A stretch of DNA of 64,000 nucleotides from Victivallis vadensis (GTDB taxonomy: Bacteria; Verrucomicrobiota; Lentisphaeria; Victivallales; GWF2-50-93). The stretch covers positions 9,260 to 73,259 of the forward strand of contig CAMCYE010000007.1 in assembly GCA_945883805.1 (NCBI GenBank). Reading direction: 5' to 3'. Both the position numbers and the translations under genes were made by a program. Below the pieces are notes generated by a model. It was not told where the DNA came from. It was given only the letters and a program-made list of their open reading frames with translations, and did not search any database. Within the stretch, counting starts at the first letter, position 1; every line of letters begins with the position of its first letter. Below are positions 8,928 to 63,860 of this stretch, piece by piece.

Positions 8928-9020
8928 AAATCGTTCAGGAAATTTTATTTTGACAGGATTACAGGATAAACTGGATTAAAAAAGAGGTTTGTCAAGTGCG
9001 GAGGGCAAATGCGGATCGGT

Positions 9021-9049
9021 CGGATATTCCGTGTTGGCTATAGGATATT
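9021..9049 (+). repeat. Module G copy: GGATATTCCGTGTTGGCTATAGGATATTC
   Basis: Near-identical to 37382..37410 and 47398..47426 (GGATATTCCGTGTTGGATATTGGATATTC). Confidence 0.8.
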
Positions 9050-9123
9050 CAGTTTTTTCAATCGAGTTACCTGCTTGATCTGAGAAAGAGCTTTTTTTAC
9101 CGGTCCAGAAATTGAGAGGCATC

Positions 9124-33256: not shown

Positions 33257-33506
33257 TGGATCACCTTCTGTTTAGGTAAAAAAACAATAAGTTTTAAATT
33301 TAGGACCCTAATAAATTACTAATAAATTAGGCGCAGAAACTAACATGGATTTGAGATTAGTCAAGAAAAACAAACTAATTTTATATGGAAAACATTGAGA
33401 AGTCAGATTTTAATTTCCCGTTTTTGATTTATCTGTACTTTCTTTTAAATGCAGTGCATGCATCTTGTCTGTGGACATTAAGGACAATCGATTAAAAAAA
33501 ATAAGG

Positions 33507-34139
33507 ATGAAAATGCTGAAAATAAAAAACGGACAGAAAATTCTATTCATAGGAGACAGTATAACCGACTGCGGAAGAAGCAGGGAAAATCCCGGAGTGC
33601 TCGGAAATGGCTATGCGATGATGACGGCTGCGCGACTTATGGTCAAATATCCGGAACAGAACTTCAGTTTCCTAAACTTTGGACTCTCAGGCAACAGGGT
33701 CAAGGATCTTAAGGCGAGATGGACCGAGGACTGTATCAGGCAAAAACCGGACATCCTCTCCATATTGATAGGGATAAATGATACGTGGAGACACTATGAC
33801 AGCAATGAGCCTACGGAGGCATCGGTTTTTGCAGATGGGCTACGCCATATTCTCAAGCGGACAAAAGAGGAACTTGGCTGTCAGATAATCATACTCGAGC
33901 CATTTGTCCTTCCGGTTCCGGCTGACAGGAAGAAATGGCGTGAAGACTTGGATCCGAAAATCAATGCATCCAGGGAGCTGGCCCTTGAATACGCGGATAC
34001 ATATTTGCCGCTTGACGGGATTTTTGCAGCGGCATCATGCAGGCAGAAACCTGCATACTGGGCGGCAGACGGAGTACATCCTACAATAGCCGGACACATG
34101 CTCATTACAGAGAAGTGGATGGAATGCGCGGGTCTGTAG
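33507..34139 (+). CDS. SGNH/GDSL-family hydrolase
   Basis: 'ILFIGDSITDCGR' (block I), 'GLSGNR' (block II), 'DGVHPT' (block V). ATG at 33507 has an AAGGA RBS; the ORF-track TTG at 33465 is less likely. Confidence 0.7.
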   Translation: MKMLKIKNGQKILFIGDSITDCGRSRENPGVLGNGYAMMTAARLMVKYPEQNFSFLNFGLSGNRVKDLKARWTEDCIRQKPDILSILIGINDTWRHYDSNEPTEASVFADGLRHILKRTKEELGCQIIILEPFVLPVPADRKKWREDLDPKINASRELALEYADTYLPLDGIFAAASCRQKPAYWAADGVHPTIAGHMLITEKWMECAGL

Positions 34140-34231
34140 AAGGTCGAATAATCGAACAGCTGAAGGACGAACATTCGAACAGCCGAAGTCAAGAAGAATC
34201 GAAGTAATTTTATAAAAGGGAAAATATAAAA
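34140..34231. repeat. Left 'CGAA-word' array flanking the four-helix-bundle gene
   Basis: GTCGAATAATCGAACAGCTGAAGGACGAACATTCGAACAGCCGAAGTCAAGAAGAATCGAAG (34143..34205). Confidence 0.6.
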
Positions 34232-34591
34232 ATGAATGTCAATATTTATAACCTTGAAGAACGTCTTATCGAGTTTGCTTGTGCAATCGTCGAAATTGTT
34301 GGAATGATTCCAAAAAATCTTATTGGAAACCATTTCTCAGGACAACTGATACGTTCAGGCTCTTCGCCGGCCTTGAATTATGCAGAAGCTCAGGATGCTG
34401 AGTCAAAGAATGATTTTATCCATAAAATGAAAATAGTATTGAAGGAGCTGAGTGAGACATATGTCTGTCTTAAGATTATTGACAGAAAAGTGCTTCCAAA
34501 TTCACCAGAAGTCAAAAAAATACTCGTTGAAAACAATGAACTCATCTCCATCTTTGTTAAAAGTGTAGCAACTGCAAGAAAGAAAGATTAG
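34232..34591 (+). CDS. Four-helix-bundle protein (23S rRNA intervening-sequence protein / Avd family, TIGR02436-like)
   Basis: 119 aa. 'LIEFACAIVEIV...GNHFSGQLIRSGSSPALNYAEAQDAESKNDFIHKMKIVLKELSETYVCLKII' is the family signature. Confidence 0.8.
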   Translation: MNVNIYNLEERLIEFACAIVEIVGMIPKNLIGNHFSGQLIRSGSSPALNYAEAQDAESKNDFIHKMKIVLKELSETYVCLKIIDRKVLPNSPEVKKILVENNELISIFVKSVATARKKD

Positions 34592-34655
34592 TTGTCTATT
34601 CGATATTCGTAGTTCGATTGTTCATCATTCGTAATTCGATGGTTCAGGATTTCCA
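34592..34655. repeat. Right 'TTCG-word' array flanking the four-helix-bundle gene (imperfect inverse of the left array)
   Basis: CTATTCGATATTCGTAGTTCGATTGTTCATCATTCGTAATTCGATGGTTC (34596..34645). For example AGTTCGATTGTTC is complementary to GAATAATCGAACA-type words on the left. Confidence 0.6.
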
Positions 34656-35519
34656 ATGCTCATAGATCTTCACATTCACAGTACGGCTTCGGACGGGACA
34701 AGGAGTCCGTCCGAGATCCTTTCGCTTGCCAGCGAAAGAAAACTTGGCGCGGTCGCCCTGACCGACCATGACACTGTTGCGGGAATTCCAGAATTTCTGG
34801 CTGAATCGGCAAAATATCCCGACATAAAAGTGGTGCCTGGCGTTGAAATCTCACTCAAGCACTATGACTATTCAATCCATGTCGTCGGGCTTTTCATTGA
34901 CCATAAATCAGAGCTTCTAAATGATTTTCTCTGCGGAATCCGCAAAAACAGGGACATGAGAAATGAGATGATTATAATGAAACTCAAAAAGCACGGATTC
35001 GACATAAGTCTTGAAGAAGTCAATGCTGAAGCCGGAGGCGAGTCTGCGGGTCGTCCCCATTTTGCAAGTATTCTCATAAGGAAGGGTTATTTCTCGGAGC
35101 CGCAGGAGGCGTTTGACAAGTGTCTGAAGCGTGGCAGGCCAGGTTACTGCGACCGCATACTGCCATTGCCCGCAGATGCTATCGATGTCATCCACAAGGC
35201 CGGAGGAATTGTAATATGGGCGCATCCGATGAGCTACGTTGACGCCGACAGGCGTGCCCTTTTGAAGATACTGAAATTTCTTATCGGCAAGGGCATTGAC
35301 GGCATTGAAGCGTATTATCCGTCTTTTACGCCCGAACAGAATGCATATCTGCTTTCGATTGCTGAAAAGCACGGCCTTGCCGTTTCCGGCGGCAGTGATT
35401 TCCATGGCGACAACATGAAAGGGATAGACATGGGAACCGGATCGGGAACCCTTGCCGTCCCATACTCGGTTTATGAGAAGCTTGAAGAATTTTCCAAAGG
35501 GAAAAGAAATTCCGCTTGA
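34656..35519 (+). CDS. PHP-domain phosphoesterase (TrpH/YciV-like)
   Basis: 'LIDLHIHSTASDGTRSP', 'ALTDHDT', 'WAHP' and 'GGSDFHG' are PHP motifs. Confidence 0.8.
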   Translation: MLIDLHIHSTASDGTRSPSEILSLASERKLGAVALTDHDTVAGIPEFLAESAKYPDIKVVPGVEISLKHYDYSIHVVGLFIDHKSELLNDFLCGIRKNRDMRNEMIIMKLKKHGFDISLEEVNAEAGGESAGRPHFASILIRKGYFSEPQEAFDKCLKRGRPGYCDRILPLPADAIDVIHKAGGIVIWAHPMSYVDADRRALLKILKFLIGKGIDGIEAYYPSFTPEQNAYLLSIAEKHGLAVSGGSDFHGDNMKGIDMGTGSGTLAVPYSVYEKLEEFSKGKRNSA

Positions 35520-35623
35520 TATATGGGTTGACAATCTTGAAAAATCTCTGTGAAAAACTACTTCAGATATAAATTTCTAAAAAAATACATGATGGCATCG
35601 GGATTCACTGCGATGTTCTTTTA

Positions 35624-35675
35624 GTACGAATTCAGTAAACGAATATAGTTTACTGAATTCGTACCCTTGTTTTTA
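35624..35675 (+). terminator. 17-bp perfect hairpin plus T-rich tail between the PHP gene and pyrR (terminator or attenuator)
   Basis: GTACGAATTCAGTAAAC-GAATATA-GTTTACTGAATTCGTAC followed by CCTTGTTTTTA. Confidence 0.5.
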
Positions 35676-35726
35676 TATCTGGAAATGGAATATTATAGAA
35701 ATTAAAATTTGGTAATAATTTTCCAA

Positions 35727-36296
35727 ATGCAGAAAAACACAAAAACATTGATCTTTGACGATAAGAAAATTGCCGGCGACATAGTAAAGGTTGCAGAGGC
35801 GATACTCTCCGATTTCAGCAAGAAAGATTTGCATGACATTGCCTTCCTCGGGATGCAGCTCAAGGGTGTCCCCTTTGCCAGACGCATAGTCTCATCCATC
35901 AAAGCCATTTCGGGTATCGACATTCCGCTTGGCACCCTTGACATAAGCATGTACCGCGACGACATCGGGATGAGAAAGACGCTTCCTGCAATACATGCGA
36001 CGGATATTCCATTTGACCTGAGCGGCAGGGCGATAATTCTGGTGGATGACGTTCTCCATACTGGACGGACAATAAGGGCGGCGTTGGATGCGATCACGGA
36101 TTATGGCAGGCCGGCAATGATCAAGCTGGCGGTGCTTGTCGACCGCGGACTGAGGGAATTCCCCATACAGGCCGACTATATGGGCGAGATGTGCCATGTT
36201 CCTGAAAATGAACATGTCTCGGTTTCGTGGAAAGAACTTGAAGGGGTGGATGCGGTTTATATGATGCCTGAAAAAAATAAAGGTATGAAAATATGA
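35727..36296 (+). CDS. pyrR: Bifunctional pyr operon regulator / uracil phosphoribosyltransferase
   Basis: '[22 protein letters not shown]' is the PRPP-binding loop. Size is right for PyrR (about 189 aa from ATG 35727). Directly upstream of pyrB with an ATGA overlap. Confidence 0.85.
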
Positions 36297-37222
36297 TGAA
36301 ATGGACCAGGAAGGATTTGCTTTCACTTTACGATCTGTCTGCGGACGAGATAAGGGTGATTCTGGACACGGCCGAGGAGTTCAAGAAAGTTTCCGAACGC
36401 AGAGTCAAGAAGGTCCCAGCACTGCGCGGAAAGACGGTGGTTAATTTCTTTGTCGAACCCAGTACTAGGACGAGGGCTTCTTTTGAACTTGCGGAACAAC
36501 GGCTGAGTGCGGACATAGTGAACATGTCGGCATCGACAAGCAGTCTTTCAAAAGGGGAGACGCTTCTCGATACTGTCAAAAACATCGAAGCGCTACAGGT
36601 TGATCTTATTGTGATGCGTCATTCAGCCGCAGGTTCACATAATTTTCTCGCGAAAAGGCTCAAATGCGGCATAATCAACGCCGGAGACGGGGCGCACGAG
36701 CATCCCACCCAAGCTCTTCTGGACATGTTTACAATCATTCAGAAAAAGGGGCGGATCGAAGGACTGAAAGTTGCGATTGTAGGAGACATTCTTCACAGCC
36801 GCGTTGCGAGAAGCAATATATGGGGGCTCCTTAAGCTGGGTGCAAAGGTCACAATCGGCGGTCCTGCAACCCTAGTCCCTAAGGAATTTGCAAAAATAGG
36901 CGTGCGGGTCTGCGATAATTTAAAAGACACCATCGAGGACGCTGACGTTGTTAATCTCCTGCGAATACAGCATGAACGGCAACGTGAATCATATTTTCCG
37001 AGCATCAGCGAATACTCAAATATTTTCGGACTCAACAGGGAAACAATAAAATATCTCAAGCCGGACGCCCTTGTGATGCATCCTGGGCCGATCAACAGGG
37101 GTGTGGAGGTGGAAGCCTCTATTGCGGACGGACCGCAGTCAGTAATTCTCGAGCAGGTCACCAACGGGCTAGCCGTCAGGATGGCGGTTTTGTATCTTGT
37201 GGCAGGCTGCTTAGAGAAGTGA
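36293..37222 (+). CDS. pyrB: Aspartate carbamoyltransferase catalytic subunit
   Basis: '[16 protein letters not shown]', 'HPTQALLD' and '[10 protein letters not shown]' motifs. Confidence 0.9.
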
Positions 37223-37595
37223 TGGAAGAAGTGCGAAAGTGCGGGGGTTGGGGAGAATTTGAACATCGAACATTCGCCATGGCGGAAACATCCAACATCG
37301 AATTTAGATGACGGGGAGACGTGGCAGGTGATCTGAGGTCAGAAAGAGAATTTAATTCAGGAAAATCCTAACTTGGACATTGGATATTCCGTGTTGGATA
37401 TTGGATATTCAGAGTTGCGGCCCCTGGTTGCCTAATTAAACGCTAAGGAATTTCAAAGTTATTATTAAAAAACTAAAAATAACGCGGCAACAGAGTGCCG
37501 CGGCTACAGCAGTGGATTTATTGTAGCCACGTCACTCTGTTGACGTGCTCTGTTTATTAGAGTTGCGACTTACAGTCGCCTAATTTAAAACATCG
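37223..37595 (+). repeat. Mosaic repeat block between pyrB and pyrC (stutter words, F palindrome, G, A-B junction, C hairpin, A)
   Basis: GAACATCGAACAT-TCGCCATGGCGGA-AACATCCAACATCGAAT (37261..37305). G at 37382..37410. A at 37411..37440 fused to B at 37441..37460. C hairpin at 37484..37547. A at 37559..37590. ATG at 37596. Confidence 0.85.
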
Positions 37596-38903
37596 ATGGG
37601 GCTTCATACCATGAAAACAGATTATATTTTGAAAAACGGACGAGTGATTGATCCCTCCCGCTCCATTGACCGGAAGATGGACATAGGCGTAAGCGACGGG
37701 AAAATAGTCAGCCCTTCAAAAATAAGGGGGGCCAAGGTGATTGACCTTGGCGGACTGGTTGTCGCACCCGGATTTATTGACATGCATGTTCATCTGCGTC
37801 AGCCGGGACGTTCCGACAAGGAATCCATAAAGACTGGTACGATGGCCGCCGCCGCCGGAGGATTCACTTCAATTCTCGCCATGCCAAATACGAGTCCGCT
37901 TTCGGATAATCCCGGGACAATTGAGCTTGTCAAGCGCGCCGCCCAGGAAGACGGAGTGGTCAAGGTTCTGCCTTGCGGGTGCATATCTAAAAATCAGGAA
38001 GGCAAGGAGATGACCGGAATCGGCGGTCTGAAAAAAGCCGGAGTTGTCGCCCTGTCGGATGACGGAAAATGTGTCCAGAACCATGAGCTCATGCGGCATG
38101 TCCTTGAATATTCAAAGTCGTTCGGACTTCCGATTCTCGATCACTGCGAGGATGAAAAGCTTGGCGCAGGCGGAGTCATGCATGAAGGCTATTGGTCGGT
38201 TGTTCTCGGATTGAGGGGAATTCCCGCCGCAACAGAGGAACTGATGGTTGCCCGCGACATAATCCTGGCTGAAATGATCGGATGGAAAATCCATATTCAG
38301 CATGTCAGCACATCTGGAAGTGTCCGTATGATAAAGGATGCCAGAAAAAGAAAGATCCCCGTTTCTGCCGAGGTCACCCCTCACCACATTGCGCTCACGG
38401 ATGAGGAGATAAAACATTTTGACACCAATTATAAGATGAATCCGCCCCTGCGTTCGGAAGATCACCGCAAAGCCCTGATAAGCGGACTCAGGGATGGGAC
38501 GATCACCGTCATCGCCACGGATCATGCGCCACATACGGAAACGGAGAAGCTTGTGGAGTTCGATTACGCGCCTTTCGGGATAATCGGGCTTGAAACTGCA
38601 TTGCCTGTCTGTCTTACAGAACTGTATCACAAAAAATTTCTGACCCTCTCTGAACTTGTTTCAAAGTTCACGGCAGGTCCTGCGGAAGTGCTCGGGCTTC
38701 AGACAGGATTGGCCGAAGGTTCCGTTGCGGATATCACCGTATTGGATCCCGATTTGAAACATAGGATTGATGCTTCCTCATTCTTCTCCAAATCCAGGAA
38801 CACGCCCTTCGACGGATGTGAAGTCCACGGAAAAGCGATGGCAACGATCGTCGACGGAAAATTCGTTTACAGCCTGCTGGACGGGGTAAAAGGGATGATT
38901 TAA
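37596..38903 (+). CDS. pyrC: Dihydroorotase
   Basis: 'PGFIDMHVHLRQPG' and 'ATDHAPH' motifs; 435 aa. The start could be the second ATG at 37611. Confidence 0.85.
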   Translation: MGLHTMKTDYILKNGRVIDPSRSIDRKMDIGVSDGKIVSPSKIRGAKVIDLGGLVVAPGFIDMHVHLRQPGRSDKESIKTGTMAAAAGGFTSILAMPNTSPLSDNPGTIELVKRAAQEDGVVKVLPCGCISKNQEGKEMTGIGGLKKAGVVALSDDGKCVQNHELMRHVLEYSKSFGLPILDHCEDEKLGAGGVMHEGYWSVVLGLRGIPAATEELMVARDIILAEMIGWKIHIQHVSTSGSVRMIKDARKRKIPVSAEVTPHHIALTDEEIKHFDTNYKMNPPLRSEDHRKALISGLRDGTITVIATDHAPHTETEKLVEFDYAPFGIIGLETALPVCLTELYHKKFLTLSELVSKFTAGPAEVLGLQTGLAEGSVADITVLDPDLKHRIDASSFFSKSRNTPFDGCEVHGKAMATIVDGKFVYSLLDGVKGMI

Positions 38904-39100
38904 TCGTATAGGAATTTCAAAGTTGGAACACCGGCATCTTTGTCAGTATTCTTAATTAAAAGAGTATGGTACAGGCGTCTCGCCTGTTTCTATTCTTTCT
39001 TGAAGAACAGGCGAGACGCCTGTACCACATTATGACAGATGCCACTAAGATGGTGGCGTTCCAAAAGAGTTGCGGCCCTTGGCCGCTTAATTTAAATCCG
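38904..39100 (+). repeat. Mosaic element after pyrC: B box, GGAACACC...GGCGTTCC closing stem, 21-bp D hairpin, A module
   Basis: B at 38905..38924. E stem 38925..38932 with 39055..39062. D hairpin TGGTACAGGCGTCTCGCCTGT/ACAGGCGAGACGCCTGTACCA within 38966..39030. A at 39066..39096. Confidence 0.85.
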
Positions 39101-39167
39101 CAACCGACGTGCAGAAGATATCCGAGAATCGAACTTTGAGAAATATAACCGATAAAACAGCATACAA

Positions 39168-39818
39168 ATGAAGGAGAGGATATTGCTTAATTTTGATGCT
39201 CCATGGCTTGAGAAGGGTGATAAACTGGTCTGTTTCGGCGATAGCCTTACATCTGCGAAGGATGATGGTTATGTGAAAATTCTGGAAGATAATCTCAGGA
39301 AACTGAAGATAAAAGTAGTTAATGCCGGGCTTGGCGGTGATAAGACTCCGACTGCGCTTGCTAGGCTGCGATCGGACGTGATTGCGCTGAAACCGGATGC
39401 AGTATCGATTTTTCTTGGAGTTAATGACGCGGCAGTCGGACGTAGCGTATGGGCAGACGAACCGCGTGTAGAACCTGCGGCATATAAAAACAATCTCATC
39501 TGGATCGTTCATATATGTCGACTGGCTGGAATCAAAAAGTTCAGCATCACTACTCCAGCTTGGCAGTTTGAAGGCACATCTATGGCAAGTTACGGCAATG
39601 TACTGTCACAATACTGTTTGGCGGCACGTGAAGCCGCCGATGAATCCGGATCAAGGCTGGTGGCACTGGATGCGGCATTTGCGCAGGAATGGCTGTTACA
39701 CGGGGGCCGAGCCAAGTCCGGTCTTCTGCTGACTCGTGACGGTGTACACATGACATTAGCGGGAAATGAACTTATCGCTTCTACCATGCTGGACACCTGG
39801 AAAATAGTCTTACCATAA
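39168..39818 (+). CDS. SGNH/GDSL-family hydrolase
   Basis: 'LVCFGDSLTSAKDDGY', 'AGLGGDKT' and 'DGVHMT' blocks. Confidence 0.65.
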   Translation: MKERILLNFDAPWLEKGDKLVCFGDSLTSAKDDGYVKILEDNLRKLKIKVVNAGLGGDKTPTALARLRSDVIALKPDAVSIFLGVNDAAVGRSVWADEPRVEPAAYKNNLIWIVHICRLAGIKKFSITTPAWQFEGTSMASYGNVLSQYCLAAREAADESGSRLVALDAAFAQEWLLHGGRAKSGLLLTRDGVHMTLAGNELIASTMLDTWKIVLP

Positions 39819-39859
39819 TCACCATGATACCGGTCTGAAAAAAATAAAGTAGCATTTTT

Positions 39860-40969
39860 ATGAAAAACAGAGTGTGGCTTGAGATAAATTTAAAGACGCT
39901 TTGCGAGAACTTCGGGAATATAAAATCCCATGTCTCACCGTGTGGAGTGATTGCGGTTCTGAAGGCGAACGCCTACGGATTGGGAGTACGGGAGATTGCC
40001 AGGACGCTTGCCGATGCCGGAGCTGCCGGATTTGGTGTTGCGGAATTGAATGAGGCGCTCATGCTGAAAGATGCCGGTATTCCGGTTCAGATTCTGGGAG
40101 GCGTCCTTCCGGAAGAAATTCCGGATGCCGTCAGAGAGGGGATAATCCTCGCCGTAACGGATGCGGAAATCGCAAAGCGCATCAGTGATGAGGCCGTGAA
40201 CCAGAAAAAAACGGCCGAATGTCAGTTTCTTGTGGACACCGGAATGGGCAGGCTTGGGATACTCGCCTTGGAAGCCGTTGACATGATTAAAAATGCGGTC
40301 GCGCTTCCAAATCTGAATTTTTCCGGAATTTATTCCCATTTTCCGATGGCTTATATGACTGGAAGCGAATATACGTTGAACCAGGTTTCACAGTTCCTGA
40401 AACTTCTCGAGCAGCTCAAATCTTCTGGGATTGTCTTCAAGAAAATCCATATTGCGAACAGCGATGCCATCAATAATTTCCCGGTCACATACAAGCCGCC
40501 GTTCAATTTTGTCAGGACGGGAATCAATCTGCACGGCTCGTTTGACAGCCAGGGGCAGCATGTCTTGAAATTGAAATCGATCCTGACTTTGAAGACCCGG
40601 CTTGTATCCATACGGGATCTTCCTGCCGGAACAAGCATCAGCTACGGATGCACATACAAACTTCCGAAGGATATGAAGGTCGGTATTGTTTCAGCAGGAT
40701 ATGCCGACGGGCTTCCTCTTGCGCTTTCAAACCGCGGATATGTTCTCATCAAGGGCAAGCCATGCCATGTCCTTGGTCGCGTGACCATGGATTATACTAT
40801 TGTTTCTCTCGAACAGCTTCCCGAAGCCGAATGCGGAGATGAAGTCATTTGCCTGGGTGGCGAAGGACCACTGGCGATAACAGTGGAAAACTGGGCCCAG
40901 CTCAAGGGAACCCATCCCTACGAGATAATCTGTTCGTTTGGCTCGCGCGTCAACCGCATCTGCGTATGA
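39860..40969 (+). CDS. alr: Alanine racemase
   Basis: 'AVLKANAYGLG' PLP-lysine motif; 369 aa; C-terminal 'TIPYEIICSFGSRV'-type tail ('THPYEIICSFGSRVNR'). Confidence 0.85.
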   Translation: MKNRVWLEINLKTLCENFGNIKSHVSPCGVIAVLKANAYGLGVREIARTLADAGAAGFGVAELNEALMLKDAGIPVQILGGVLPEEIPDAVREGIILAVTDAEIAKRISDEAVNQKKTAECQFLVDTGMGRLGILALEAVDMIKNAVALPNLNFSGIYSHFPMAYMTGSEYTLNQVSQFLKLLEQLKSSGIVFKKIHIANSDAINNFPVTYKPPFNFVRTGINLHGSFDSQGQHVLKLKSILTLKTRLVSIRDLPAGTSISYGCTYKLPKDMKVGIVSAGYADGLPLALSNRGYVLIKGKPCHVLGRVTMDYTIVSLEQLPEAECGDEVICLGGEGPLAITVENWAQLKGTHPYEIICSFGSRVNRICV

Positions 40970-41072
40970 TTTTTCCTGTGGAAAAACCATGTCCTCTTTA
41001 AAATTCCAATATATAGATTAAATTCCCGTCCATTGAATTTTTAATTTCTCACTCATAATTCACAATATTCTT

Positions 41073-47286: not shown

Positions 47287-47478
47287 CGGAAAACGAGGCA
47301 CAAAGGCGCAAAGGTGCAGAGGCACAAAGTGAAGAGGGATGGGTAAAGTAACTCGGGCATTCCTGCCCGAGACAGAATCAGCAAGTCCTTAATCATTGGA
47401 TATTCCGTGTTGGATATTGGATATTCGTTTTGCGACTTAGCACTTAAAACTTAACACTTAAAACTGTGAAATAAAACC
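47287..47478 (+). repeat. Mosaic repeat block between lpxA and the aconitase-family gene
   Basis: CACAAAG-type stutter at 47295..47338. Hairpin CTCGGGCA-TTCC-TGCCCGAG at 47352..47371. G at 47398..47426. Degenerate A (GTTTTGCGACTTAGCACTTAAAAC) at about 47427..47450. CACTTAAAAC stutter to about 47470. Confidence 0.75.
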
Positions 47479-49431: not shown

Positions 49432-49951
49432 AGATAGGGCGATTTCTCCGAAAGCACCGCCGGACGGACGGCTATCCCTACCTTGACGTTAAGGAATTTA
49501 AAAGAGATGAACATCCAACATCCAACGTTGAACATCGAACATTGAATTAAAACTCAATTCATTCTAAGTTGGATGTTTCCGCCGTGGCGGATTGAATGTT
49601 CGAAGTTCAGATTATTTAAAAGTTGCGGCCCTTGGCCGCCTAATTCAAGCGTATAGGAAATTGTATTTTAAGGAACGCCGGTCTCCAGACCGGCTTTAAT
49701 GGTAAATGACAAAAGAGCCGAACTGGAGTTCGGCGTTCCATAAAGAGTCCCGGCGGAGCCGGTTAAGTTCACGTTAAGGAATTTCAAAGTTTATGAATAT
49801 TAAGACAGCCTAAAGGCTGGACTCCAAATTTTGGAGTTCACACTTTAGTGTGTCTTTATTTTAAACAAGTTGCGGCCTTTGACCATCTAATTCAATCAGA
49901 ACTCCAGACAGGAATGTCTGGGTTGCTTAAACATATGGGGATTTTTTATTT
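49432..49951 (+). repeat. Array of A-B junction repeats alternating with hairpin inserts (acn-metG gap)
   Basis: Junction units at 49452..49506 (diverged), 49619..49673 and 49744..49791, plus a terminal A at 49866..49897. Insert 1 carries stutter words and TCCGCCGTGGCGGA (49578..49591). Insert 2 is GGAACGCC...GGCGTTCC (49672..49739). Insert 3 has three small hairpins (49806..49852). Confidence 0.85.
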
Positions 49952-62008: not shown

Positions 62009-62152
62009 AGCGCGGCAACGGAGTGCCACGGCTACAGTCCGGATTTTTTGTAGCCACGGCACTCTGTTGCCGTGATCTTTGATATTTGACTGTGGGAATG
62101 CCTCCGTACTCCCGAACTTCCTTATCTTTAAATTAGGCGGCCAAAGACTTGC
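62009..62152. repeat. C-hairpin copy 2 (plus orientation) and A module (minus orientation) in the deoR/isomerase convergent gap
   Basis: C2 at 62012..62074, GCGGCAACGGAGTGCCACGGCTACAG...TGTAGCCACGGCACTCTGTTGCCGTG, compared with C1 at 37484..37547. On the minus strand 62152..62128 reads GCAAGTCTTTGGCCGCCTAATTTAA. Confidence 0.8.
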
Positions 62153-63519
62153 TCCGCATCTACGGATATTCCAAGAATTGAGCAGAGCGCTTCCAGCTTT
62201 GCCCGGTTGTCGCCGTAGGAAATAATGTAGTGCTGGCTCATCACCTTCTGGATGAAGTCCTCCACGGGATTGTCAAAAATTATTTCCAGGCTTGGCAGTT
62301 GCGGGGCAGGTGGTGCCCAGCCGGCCTCCTCCCATTTGACCGGAGTTCGTGCGGTTCCGGTCATGATGTGCATGGCATATACTCCTTTTGAATATCCCAG
62401 CCGGCAGATTGTGACTTTTCCCGTTTTCAGTTTCGACACGTTCAGGAGGCCCTCGCCGAAATCGCCGAACGCGTTCGGCATTACTGTTACCTTGCCGTCG
62501 ACAATTTCCGCAGGAACATAGTCGGGCACCCCCATCAGCGCACCGTCTTTCATGAATTCGTAAAATTCCAGATATGCCGCAACTTGTCCGGTGAGATATT
62601 TTACGATGAGCTGCGTCACCGCGCCAAGGCTGTCGTTTTCCGGAATTGAGCAGATGTCCATTTCATCATGCAAGAGCGTCAGACTTCCCGCAGGAGCGAA
62701 TTTCATCAGTTTCTTGACACCGTCAACATCGCAGAAGGAGAATCCCTGATATTTTCGGTCATGGATTTTAGCTTTCAACGCGAGGAAAAGACGAACGGAA
62801 TTTTCCACGGTCCCCGGTCGCGGTTCTTTTACAAAATGCCATCTTTTTTTCAGGGCCGAGGAGATTGTCGCGATTTCCTTCGCTTTGACTTTCTCCATCA
62901 GTTGGGCAATCTCAAGCAGGTCGAAATGCTCTATTTCAGGACCTATTTGGGCTTTCAGGGAAACGCCGTCGTAGAGAGTGCCGTACAGTCGCATGTCACG
63001 ATAGCCTGCCATACCGATTTTGGCCGTTTTGAGTAGAGAAGCGGCCCGTGCGGCTTCCGCATAATTTATTATCTCTGCGATTCTCGGTTTTTCCCCGCGG
63101 TAATTGACAACGTATTTGAAATCATATCCCATGTCCTCCATCGGCTTGCGCAGGGCTGTGGTTCCCGCCTGATCGGCGGTGGTGACAAAACGGTCACCTT
63201 CCTGCCAGCCGCTGAGCCCCCACAGGATCATCGGCTTGTGTTTGAACGGTTCAATAACGCTGAAGACGGCCCAGGACGGTATCCACCCGGCGACACAGAT
63301 AATCAGCAGGTCAAAATCATTCCTGGCAAGCTCCGTCCTTGCCCGTGCCGCCTCTTTCCCGTCAGGATCGTCGCAGACAACTGCGGTTGTGAACAGTTTC
63401 AATCCCCTCTTTTCAAGCAATTTTGCGGATTCCGCACAACGCCCGACAATAAATTCCTTCGGTGTATTGACTTCCCCGAACCCGACAAATCCGGCTCTGA
63501 TTTCCCTTAACCTGTTCAT
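62128..63519 (-). CDS. L-fucose/L-arabinose isomerase-family sugar isomerase (tentative)
   Basis: 463 aa. N-terminus 'IRAGFVGFGEVNTPKEF' and overall size and pattern resemble FucI/AraA-like isomerases. The last five codons plus the stop lie in repeat module A. Confidence 0.5.
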   Translation of the reverse strand: MNRLREIRAGFVGFGEVNTPKEFIVGRCAESAKLLEKRGLKLFTTAVVCDDPDGKEAARARTELARNDFDLLIICVAGWIPSWAVFSVIEPFKHKPMILWGLSGWQEGDRFVTTADQAGTTALRKPMEDMGYDFKYVVNYRGEKPRIAEIINYAEAARAASLLKTAKIGMAGYRDMRLYGTLYDGVSLKAQIGPEIEHFDLLEIAQLMEKVKAKEIATISSALKKRWHFVKEPRPGTVENSVRLFLALKAKIHDRKYQGFSFCDVDGVKKLMKFAPAGSLTLLHDEMDICSIPENDSLGAVTQLIVKYLTGQVAAYLEFYEFMKDGALMGVPDYVPAEIVDGKVTVMPNAFGDFGEGLLNVSKLKTGKVTICRLGYSKGVYAMHIMTGTARTPVKWEEAGWAPPAPQLPSLEIIFDNPVEDFIQKVMSQHYIISYGDNRAKLEALCSILGISVDAEQVFGRLI

Positions 63520-63659: not shown

Positions 63660-63860
63660 TTATCGGAACGCCAGCACCTTGCTGGCATATGCTTTAATGT
63701 GATACAGGCATCTCGCCTGTTCTTATTCTTCCTTAAAAAACACAGGCGAGACGCCTGTACCACATTCTTTTATCAACCAAGCGGATAAAGATCGCCACAC
63801 AGGATATCCGACAATCCATTAATTCGCCTTCAGTGAATTAATCCAATAATCCACCATCAA
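63660..63860. repeat. E-D composite copy 2 plus AATCCA-word tract
   Basis: GGAACGCC-AGCACCTTGCTGGC from 63666. D2 hairpin at 63699..63765 (compare D1 at 38966..39030; the right arm ACAGGCGAGACGCCTGTACCACAT is identical). GGATATCCGACAATCCATTAATTC...GAATTAATCCAATAATCCACC at 63801..63858. Confidence 0.8.

Follow-up and report, generated by a model that had tools for sequence, protein, structure and literature searches.

Most of what is known of IS91-family elements concerns Proteobacteria, where they carry resistance and virulence genes, and to our knowledge natural non-autonomous forms of the family are barely documented. Here we analyse a 64,000-nt stretch of DNA from Victivallis vadensis (contig CAMCYE010000007.1; hereinafter the window), in which the genes pyrB and pyrC of a pyrR-pyrB-pyrC operon are separated by 373 nt. 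This spacer most likely consists of several small, non-autonomous mini-transposons of the rolling-circle kind with IS91-type termini, which would have been mobilised in trans and are tolerated between the two genes. The window is one MEGAHIT metagenome contig (European Nucleotide Archive ERZ27280308, k141_1305141, 100% identity), and the PyrC proteins closest to its own, with 91% identity, belong to Victivallis and Victivallales (Lentisphaerota) metagenome-assembled genomes.

[quoted passage not shown] The family makes no target-site duplication and has a GC-rich subterminal palindrome in terIS, and a mini-IS91 consisting of the two ends alone transposes if tnpA is given in trans (PMC13181058). 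The natural miniatures of IS801 are 229–679-nt right-end fragments without the left-end hairpin (PMC3189936). In the literature that could be searched, mostly papers available without subscription, the IS91-derived MITEs (miniature transposable elements with inverted repeats) amounted to just these one-ended IS801 miniatures and the laboratory mini-IS91. Mini-elements derived from IS91 that are natural, abundant and two-ended, with variable hairpin cargo and tandem arrays, were not found described there, and the sequence of the module B defined below matched unrelated primers only.

The operon contains the following genes.

35709-36296, + strand: pyrR, phosphoribosyltransferase-type regulator (Pfam Pribosyltran, 1e-17).
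36293-37222, + strand: pyrB, aspartate carbamoyltransferase (Pfam OTCace_N, 3e-45; OTCace, 7e-29).
37596-38903, + strand: pyrC, dihydroorotase (Pfam Amidohydro_1 and DHOase), with its TAA stop within the ATTTAA target of the next element.

The gene identities agree with the operon context given by a first-pass annotation of this DNA, and the pyrR/pyrB ATGA overlap (36293-36296) and the pyrB-pyrC spacing of 373 nt (37223-37595) that it had described are read directly in the sequence. Its repeat modules G, A, B and C lie where it had placed them and each has copies beyond the spacer, and the A tail indeed contains stop codons in multiple frames. The description of the spacer as made entirely of repeat modules was an overstatement: about 70% of it is copied elsewhere in the window or in fetched loci (about 77% counting the internal stutter). 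The segments 37300-37345 and the AT-rich 37461-37480 (20 nt) are sole copies when compared with the window and the fetched loci. The stable hairpins that had been noted are reproduced by computed folds; the C hairpin as DNA has a folding energy of −21.3 kcal/mol (z = −4.7), and the whole spacer as RNA has −109.3 kcal/mol (z = −2.8).

Two short modules define the architecture of the spacer. A consists of AGAGTT, a GC hairpin and then CTAATTTAA, and corresponds to a terIS end; B is CGYWWAGGAATTTCAAAGTT, and corresponds to an oriIS end. The A pattern has four matches in the window versus none in 100 shuffles, and the B 15-mer has three exact occurrences in the window. A unit is non-coding and has the layout 5'-B (~20 nt), variable hairpin cargo, A-3'. 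The spacer reads as follows.

37226-37256, + strand: stutter with an 8-nt period (GAAGTGCG AAAGTGCG GGGGTTGG...), with a counterpart after the pyrB stop in sister species.
~37253-37440, + strand: unit 1, degenerate IS91-derived mini-element, recognised by alignment and inverted repeats; left boundary uncertain.
37411-37440, + strand: A1, terIS-type end of unit 1 (AGAGTT, hairpin GCGGCC-CCT-GGTTGC, then CTAATTAAA).
37441-37589, + strand: unit 2, intact 149-nt non-autonomous IS91-family element with the layout B, AT-rich linker, C hairpin, A2.
37441-37460, + strand: B, oriIS-type end CGCTAAGGAATTTCAAAGTT, whose reverse complement matches the IS1294 and IS91 right ends.
37483-37547, no strand assigned: C hairpin, REPIN-like doublet and cargo of unit 2, recognised by inverted repeat, fold and second copy.
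37559-37589, + strand: A2, terIS-type end of unit 2 (AGAGTT, hairpin GCGAC-TTACA-GTCGC, then CTAATTTAAA; fold z = −3.4).
37589-37596, + strand: AACATCGA, 8 nt that repeat 37262-37269 directly; the mosaic lies between the two copies, of which this one extends into the pyrC ATG.

Unit 1 starts with a truncated B-like GAGAATTT. Its 5' arm (37261-37303) consists of GAACATC heptamers flanking the palindrome TCGCCATGGCGGA, and its middle is a unique segment of 42 nt (37304-37345). The 3' half (37346-37410), module G included, is homologous to a 'mini-1' family found in metagenome contigs L168, L171, L119 and L204, with 91–98% identity (94.6% over 74 nt with L171; 91% over 90 nt with L168). Module G (37378-37410) is 100% identical to 47394-47426 and 85% identical to 9018-9050. 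Unit 2 starts right behind the TAATTAAA tail of A1, a self-generated target, which accounts for the 'A-B junction' of the first-pass annotation. The A2 end (37589) is 6 nt from the pyrC ATG, with ACATCG (37590-37595) in between, and the A2 hairpin spans positions −31 to −17 relative to this ATG.

A scan of metagenomes identified B in more than 120 contigs; B has no match in viral contigs. The contexts of B are of two kinds, autonomous elements and mini-elements. Because several contigs agree to the right of B and differ to its left, B is the end of a mobile element. Contig L105 encodes, on the strand opposite B, a 392-aa protein that matches the Pfam families Y2_Tnp (2e-38) and Zn_Tnp_IS91 (2e-22). 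B lies just past the downstream open reading frame (ORF) of this contig, and an A-like hairpin and tail, TAGCCTCGCGCAGCGACTAACTTGA (hairpin, then CTAACTTGA), lies ~90 nt beyond the transposase start. Related transposases adjoin B in eleven further contigs, L168 among them. The transposases of the further autonomous copies are 36–55% identical to the L105 protein, and these copies end in a hairpin and CTAATTTAA, ~80 nt beyond the tnpA start.

The G and A modules of the window are themselves present in contig L168, which in the orientation of B reads from a gene end (...GGTAATTTAA) into a 156-nt mini-element (B, heptamer and G cargo, A), then into a 1594-nt element (CGTATAGGAATTTCAAAGTT...tnpA in reverse...AAAAAGTTGCGGCGCTTTGGCCGCCTAATTTAA), and then into the flank AGGCG.... 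Therefore, B and A are the two ends of a 1.6-kb IS91-family element. Both ends of this autonomous element are matched by the ends of unit 2. There is no target-site duplication, as read from the L168 flanks only.

B and A have the properties of IS91-family termini. B is a homologous terminus downstream of tnpA, as oriIS is. Specifically, the reverse complement of B, AACTTTGAAATTCCTATACG, aligns with the canonical ends (...ATTTCCTATACG/TGAAC, with a slash at the junction), namely the end of an IS1294-like element (...CAATTTCCTATACG/TGAAC) and the end of IS91 (...TTTAAATTCCTATCGA/TGAAC; AAATTCCTATCGA in the comparison with B). A has the single GC-rich subterminal palindrome beside the cleavage tetranucleotide that is expected of terIS. 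Perfect stems of at least 5 bp are present in 19 of the 44 A-type sequences that abut B, versus 3.9 in shuffles, and 13 different stems are represented. Terminal inverted repeats are absent, TAGG being all that B has in common with the reverse complement of A. T occupies position −4 of the 5' flank in 112 of 125 B sites, the commonest B flanks being TTTAA, TTCAA, TTAAA, GTCCA, GTTCA and CTTGA. The corresponding flanks in the window are TTAA-A for unit 2 and TTAA-T for a further unit behind pyrC (unit 3, described below).

The mini-elements are without coding capacity and vary in content. B-cargo-A units are 85–253 nt long (median 135 nt; the smallest, of 85 nt, is in L159), with hairpin-rich cargo of 40–200 nt that falls into 81 clusters for 123 B sites. 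One cargo can recur behind several flanks; in one instance, 8 copies have 7 different flanks.

Thus characterised, the units resemble the IS91 family (IS91, IS801, IS1294, ISCR) in a nearly identical oriIS end (...AWTTCCTATACG), in the terIS hairpin without terminal inverted repeats, and in a tetranucleotide target that has T at position 2 and resembles the terIS terminus. The laboratory mini-IS91 shows that ends-only derivatives can be mobilised in trans, and the units here would be mobilised likewise. Unlike the described members, the units here are natural, ~85–250 nt long, two-ended, numerous and arranged in head-to-tail arrays. They differ greatly in cargo, which in most cases is a hairpin and in many is enclosed by GTAG...CTAC; their preferred target is A/T-rich (TTAA/TTTA) versus GTTC/CTTG; and in place of Proteobacteria, they occupy environmental bacteria, Lentisphaerota (Victivallales) among them. 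Unlike the IS801 miniatures, they keep the terIS hairpin end.

The spacer is polymorphic between closely related strains. In four Joint Genome Institute (JGI) contigs (L001-L004), PyrR, PyrB and PyrC are identical to those of the window wherever covered, and the flanking DNA has 99.4–99.7% identity (~99.5%). The pyrB-pyrC spacer of these contigs is 240 nt, and a fifth contig has the same gene spacing, as taken from gene positions. The difference maps to one segment.

37297-37558 (262 nt), + strand: strain-polymorphic segment, replaced by an unrelated 131 nt in L001-L004.

The replacing 131 nt are made up of TAATTAAA, B, a REPIN of the GGTACAGGCG type and the beginning of A. To the left, the spacers of the two alleles agree as far as ...GGCGGAAACATCCAAC, and to the right they agree again from AGAGTTGCG... 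onwards. The A2 stem shows compensatory changes, GCGAC-TTACA-GTCGC in the window versus GCGGC-AAC-GCCGC in L001.

The first-pass annotation had proposed a comparison with pyrB-pyrC spacing in relatives. Of ~60 Lentisphaerota and Verrucomicrobiota loci with pyrR-pyrB-pyrC, the large majority have overlapping or abutting pyrB and pyrC genes (estimated gap of about −28 to +17 nt), and gene overlap is the ancestral arrangement. Exceptions in Verrucomicrobiota have 154, 493 and 1076 nt. In Lentisphaerota, spacers are present only in the closest clade (PyrB identity at least 92%) and measure 37, 61, 82, 96, 122, 128, 153, 193, 240 and, in the window, 373 nt. The spacers of sister species contain 8-nt stutters (GAAGTTCG...) and runs of GAACATC-type heptamers; in L005, L007 and L010 the GAAGTTCG-type stutter directly follows the pyrB stop. 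Neither A nor B was found in the pyrB-pyrC spacers of sister species. Tandem stutters of 7–9 nt (GAAGTGCG, GGCACAAAG, CACTTAAAA) are frequent in the intergenic DNA of the clade, both in the L005, L007 and L010 spacers and in the window (37226-37256, 47297-47335 and 47437-47466).

On the evidence of termini, targets, the recurrence of cargo behind different flanks and strain polymorphism, we propose that a Y2 transposase from an autonomous copy elsewhere would act in trans and nick at B. The strand would be displaced through the cargo, with termination at the A hairpin and tail, and the single-stranded circle would be pasted beside an N-T-N-N tetranucleotide, here TTAA or TTGA, often overlapping a stop codon. 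The element end ...TTTAA would recreate the target, and head-to-tail A/B junctions and arrays would arise for that reason. In the corresponding history of the locus, overlapping pyrB and pyrC genes would have been parted by a short stutter spacer like that of L005, and unit 1 would have been gained next. Different units would then have inserted independently behind the unit 1 tail in two strain lineages, with a 136-nt deletion in the L001 lineage. Unit 1 would accordingly be the older and unit 2 the later arrival.

Since the spacer content turns over between strains, it is most likely tolerated selfish DNA, probably neutral for the operon. The first-pass annotation had named neutral filler shared by no other strain as an alternative to a functional block. 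The interior does differ in strains that are 99.5% identical, and the comparison leans to neutral or tolerated DNA. Because the ancestral pyrB-pyrC overlap has been lost, pyrC must start translation independently. Any effect on the operon would possibly be a by-product of insertion, such as lost translational coupling, protection of RNA 3' ends by hairpins, or weak termination. The reading of the locus thereby shifts from a regulatory block to a mobile-element insertion hotspot within an operon, with a natural allelic series of pyrB-pyrC spacers of 0, ~60, 240 and 373 nt.

Several points weigh against a pile-up of mini-transposons. No IS91-type transposase was matched by tblastn in the 64-kb window, and the best autonomous partner is from a different metagenome contig, L168, which has the G and A modules in common with the window. 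Unit 1 is without an intact B and has an ambiguous left boundary. The 8-nt repeat AACATCGA that brackets the mosaic is not predicted by canonical IS91 insertion, and because sister species L005 has GGAATTTGAATATCGA/ATG before pyrC, part of the left side of the mosaic may be native. The allele difference is a replacement rather than presence versus absence, and so needs recombination or at least two to three events. A search for a clean empty site of unit 2 was negative. In the look-ups made, the 373-nt allele was recovered from a single metagenome contig only, that of the window.

This last point bears on whether the 373-nt arrangement is a metagenome assembly chimera formed through short shared repeats. 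The allele comes from one MEGAHIT contig and its interior is bounded by repeats, as such a chimera would be. However, the modules are mostly 20–65 nt, and even the ~90-nt stretch of G, A and B shared with L168 is shorter than the final k of 141. The unique 37300-37345 is embedded between modules, the flanks join the same genes in both alleles, and B-cargo-A behind an A tail recurs in independent contigs. We consider a chimera most improbable. A CRISPR-like or integron-like array, with A-B as the repeat and the hairpins as spacers, was considered and rejected; the 'repeat' is two transposon ends joined, and the 'spacers' are themselves repeats.

The hairpins raise a different question, namely whether the spacer is a cluster of repetitive extragenic palindromic (REP) or BIME type, made and moved by a RAYT, an IS200/IS605-like Y1 transposase, with A and B as extra-palindromic linker motifs. 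The C hairpin carries the unit GTAGCC-RCGKCA-CTCTGY-TGMCGY-G on both arms and thus comprises two inverted REP-type palindromes. It is an extragenic, multi-copy inverted doublet of imperfect palindromes with a GTAG head, as expected of a REP or REPIN, and the GGTACAGGCG hairpin is also an inverted doublet, the heads of the two being GTAG/GTAC. Of 98 distinct cargos, 27 have GTAG no more than 10 nt from B, versus 2 of 98 in a control window, and 21 of those 27 close with CTAC shortly before A. C-type REPs occur without A or B, both singly and as tandem doublets, and copies of this kind are present in L133 and L199. Because the C-type REP occurs without A and B, the C hairpin is a separate repeat family, either cargo or nested. 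Against mobilisation by a RAYT, A and B are real ends of autonomous elements that code for a Y2 (IS91-family) and not a Y1 transposase, and B matches the oriIS ends of IS1294 and IS91; cargo or nested insertions are the best reading of the REPINs. Among the scanned ORFs of the window there is no Y1 transposase, and no RAYT search was made beyond it. We consider a RAYT-made cluster unlikely. REP-like stems may be a functional part of the mini-elements. The more distant sister species L008-L011 and L019 have in common a hairpin, GGAGCGCTGGCGTCTCGCCGGCATCAAT, ~20 nt upstream of pyrC; the core of this hairpin, GGCGTCTCGCC, recurs as the core of the GGTACAGGCGTCTCGCCTGT REPIN of the window (38968-39029, 63700-63766).

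REP elements in E. coli operons (malE-malF) alter relative mRNA stability, and the first-pass annotation had expected the hairpin block to affect transcript processing, stability or pyrC translation. The spacer would then be a selected regulatory RNA of the pyr operon, and the pyrC/pyrB ratio would depend on its processing, on protection of 3' ends, on attenuation, on the binding of PyrR or on control of pyrC translation. The stable hairpins are consistent with such a role, as are the placement of the A2 end 6 nt before the pyrC ATG, the 8 nt preceding the ATG that are kept in both alleles, and a terminator-like site (37528-37547, + strand) and a weak promoter-like site (37374-37402, + strand). 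Against it, sister spacers are quite different or very short, most relatives have no spacer, and the modules are transposable-element ends that also occur in unrelated intergenic loci. A sequence-specific role is further argued against because the interior is swapped at strain level, between strains of 99.5% identity. In Rfam, the spacer has no match, PyrR element included; a gathering-threshold scan of the whole window returned two tRNAs only, and an E-value scan of 35000-40000 returned only sub-threshold, spurious miRNA look-alikes on the REPIN downstream of pyrC. Selection for a regulatory RNA is therefore very unlikely to explain the spacer.

The pile-up of IS91-type mini-transposons has its closest functional analogue in the non-autonomous Helitrons, an analogy that would concern function, as homology of the ends is not expected. 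Like the units here, non-autonomous Helitrons depend on rolling-circle HUH transposition, have a conserved 5' end and a GC-rich hairpin ~10 nt from the 3' end, and are without inverted repeats and target duplication. They too insert at A/T-rich sites, carry variable captured cargo and outnumber the autonomous copies. Unlike the units here, Helitrons are eukaryotic and usually much larger, end in 5'-TC...CTRR-3' and depend on a RepHel protein with a fused helicase. REP, REPIN and BIME repeats, which are mobilised by RAYTs, share with the units the inverted doublets of the cargo hairpins, the GTAG head, the extragenic location and the mosaic arrangement; the cargo hairpins here could act on mRNA as REPs do in operons. 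The difference is that the modules flanking the hairpins belong to a Y2 (IS91) and not a Y1 (RAYT) element. Bacterial MITEs such as Correia, RUP and the modular BOX are likewise short, non-coding, intergenic, structured, multi-copy and strain-variable, but classical MITEs have terminal inverted repeats and DDE target duplications, whereas the units here have asymmetric ends without inverted repeats.

The locus itself may be ordinary, as mobile DNA in a spacer, and the novelty may lie in the class of element. It is possible, although we hold this only tentatively, that bacteria have a large class of 'Helitron-like' rolling-circle elements, non-autonomous and defined by A and B, which is undescribed as far as found. 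In such a class the ~20-nt oriIS and the hairpin terIS would be the sole conserved parts, and the cargo could be almost any hairpin, very often a REP-like GTAG...CTAC stem. The targets would be the stop-codon-like TTAA and TTGA, and tandem arrays would be self-seeded. If this is true, many REP-like hairpins in these lineages would spread as passengers of IS91-type Y2 transposases and not via RAYTs. The GTAG-hairpin cargo suggests a testable link between REP-like repeats and Y2 transposases, and the 20-nt oriIS tag with the hairpin terIS offers a simple metagenome search key for non-autonomous forms of the IS91 family.

Other units and repeats in the window are as follows.

38905-39095, + strand: unit 3, 191 nt, B - GGTACAGGCG REPIN (plus a second hairpin) - A, directly after the pyrC stop.
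49487-49648, 49650-49771 and 49772-49895, + strand: three B - cargo - A units in a tandem array, flanked by the aconitase gene and metG.
62011-62074, no strand assigned: second C-type REPIN copy (86% over 65 nt), without flanking A or B on the + strand.

The REPIN of unit 3 folds with −29.5 kcal/mol (z = −10.7), and the unit 3 mosaic downstream of pyrC is identical in the strains with the 240-nt spacer. No clean empty site was found for unit 3 either; sister contig L007 reads GATTTAG/TATCATG where the window reads GATTTAA/T-B..., which is suggestive only. For the acn-metG array, an exact-protein look-up in other strains matched the window's own contig only. The cargo of its third unit (49792-49866) forms three successive small hairpins closed by AAGACA/TGTCTT and is cloverleaf-like; a tRNA-like reading of this cargo at ~49800 was rejected, as ARAGORN calls nothing there.

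The A copies in the window always have the orientation of an adjacent gene (three informative loci), whereas for the upstream ORF of the metagenome loci, 39 cases share the strand and 37 have the opposite one. The GC skew of the window changes sign near 28 kb, gene orientation turns from mostly − to mostly + near 33 kb, and the A and B copies run with the local gene strand. Because there are too few independent loci, transcription and replication-strand bias are inseparable here. The isomerase-like ORF 62128-63519 (− strand) ends ...GGC CGC CTA ATT TAA within an A-type tail, GGCCGCCTAATTTAAA (62127-62150), and the element end appears to supply its last codons and stop.

Upstream of the operon, a perfect 17-bp hairpin followed by CCTTGTTTTT (35624-35674) lies 35–50 nt before pyrR. 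This hairpin could act in termination of the upstream PHP gene or as an attenuator in a pyr leader; Rfam has no match to a PyrR element in this region. Downstream, another strain (JGI contig 3300059473) has an extra 126-aa PDDEXK_3 gene between alr and an MFS gene (window ~40970-41072), which the window does not have. A second strain-specific indel lies near the pyr operon, where 33451-34631 (1.18 kb) is replaced by ~205 nt in strain contigs L001 and L002. Two genes lie in this segment, one for a GDSL lipase (33465-34139) and one for a 23S-rRNA-intervening-sequence family protein (34232-34591).

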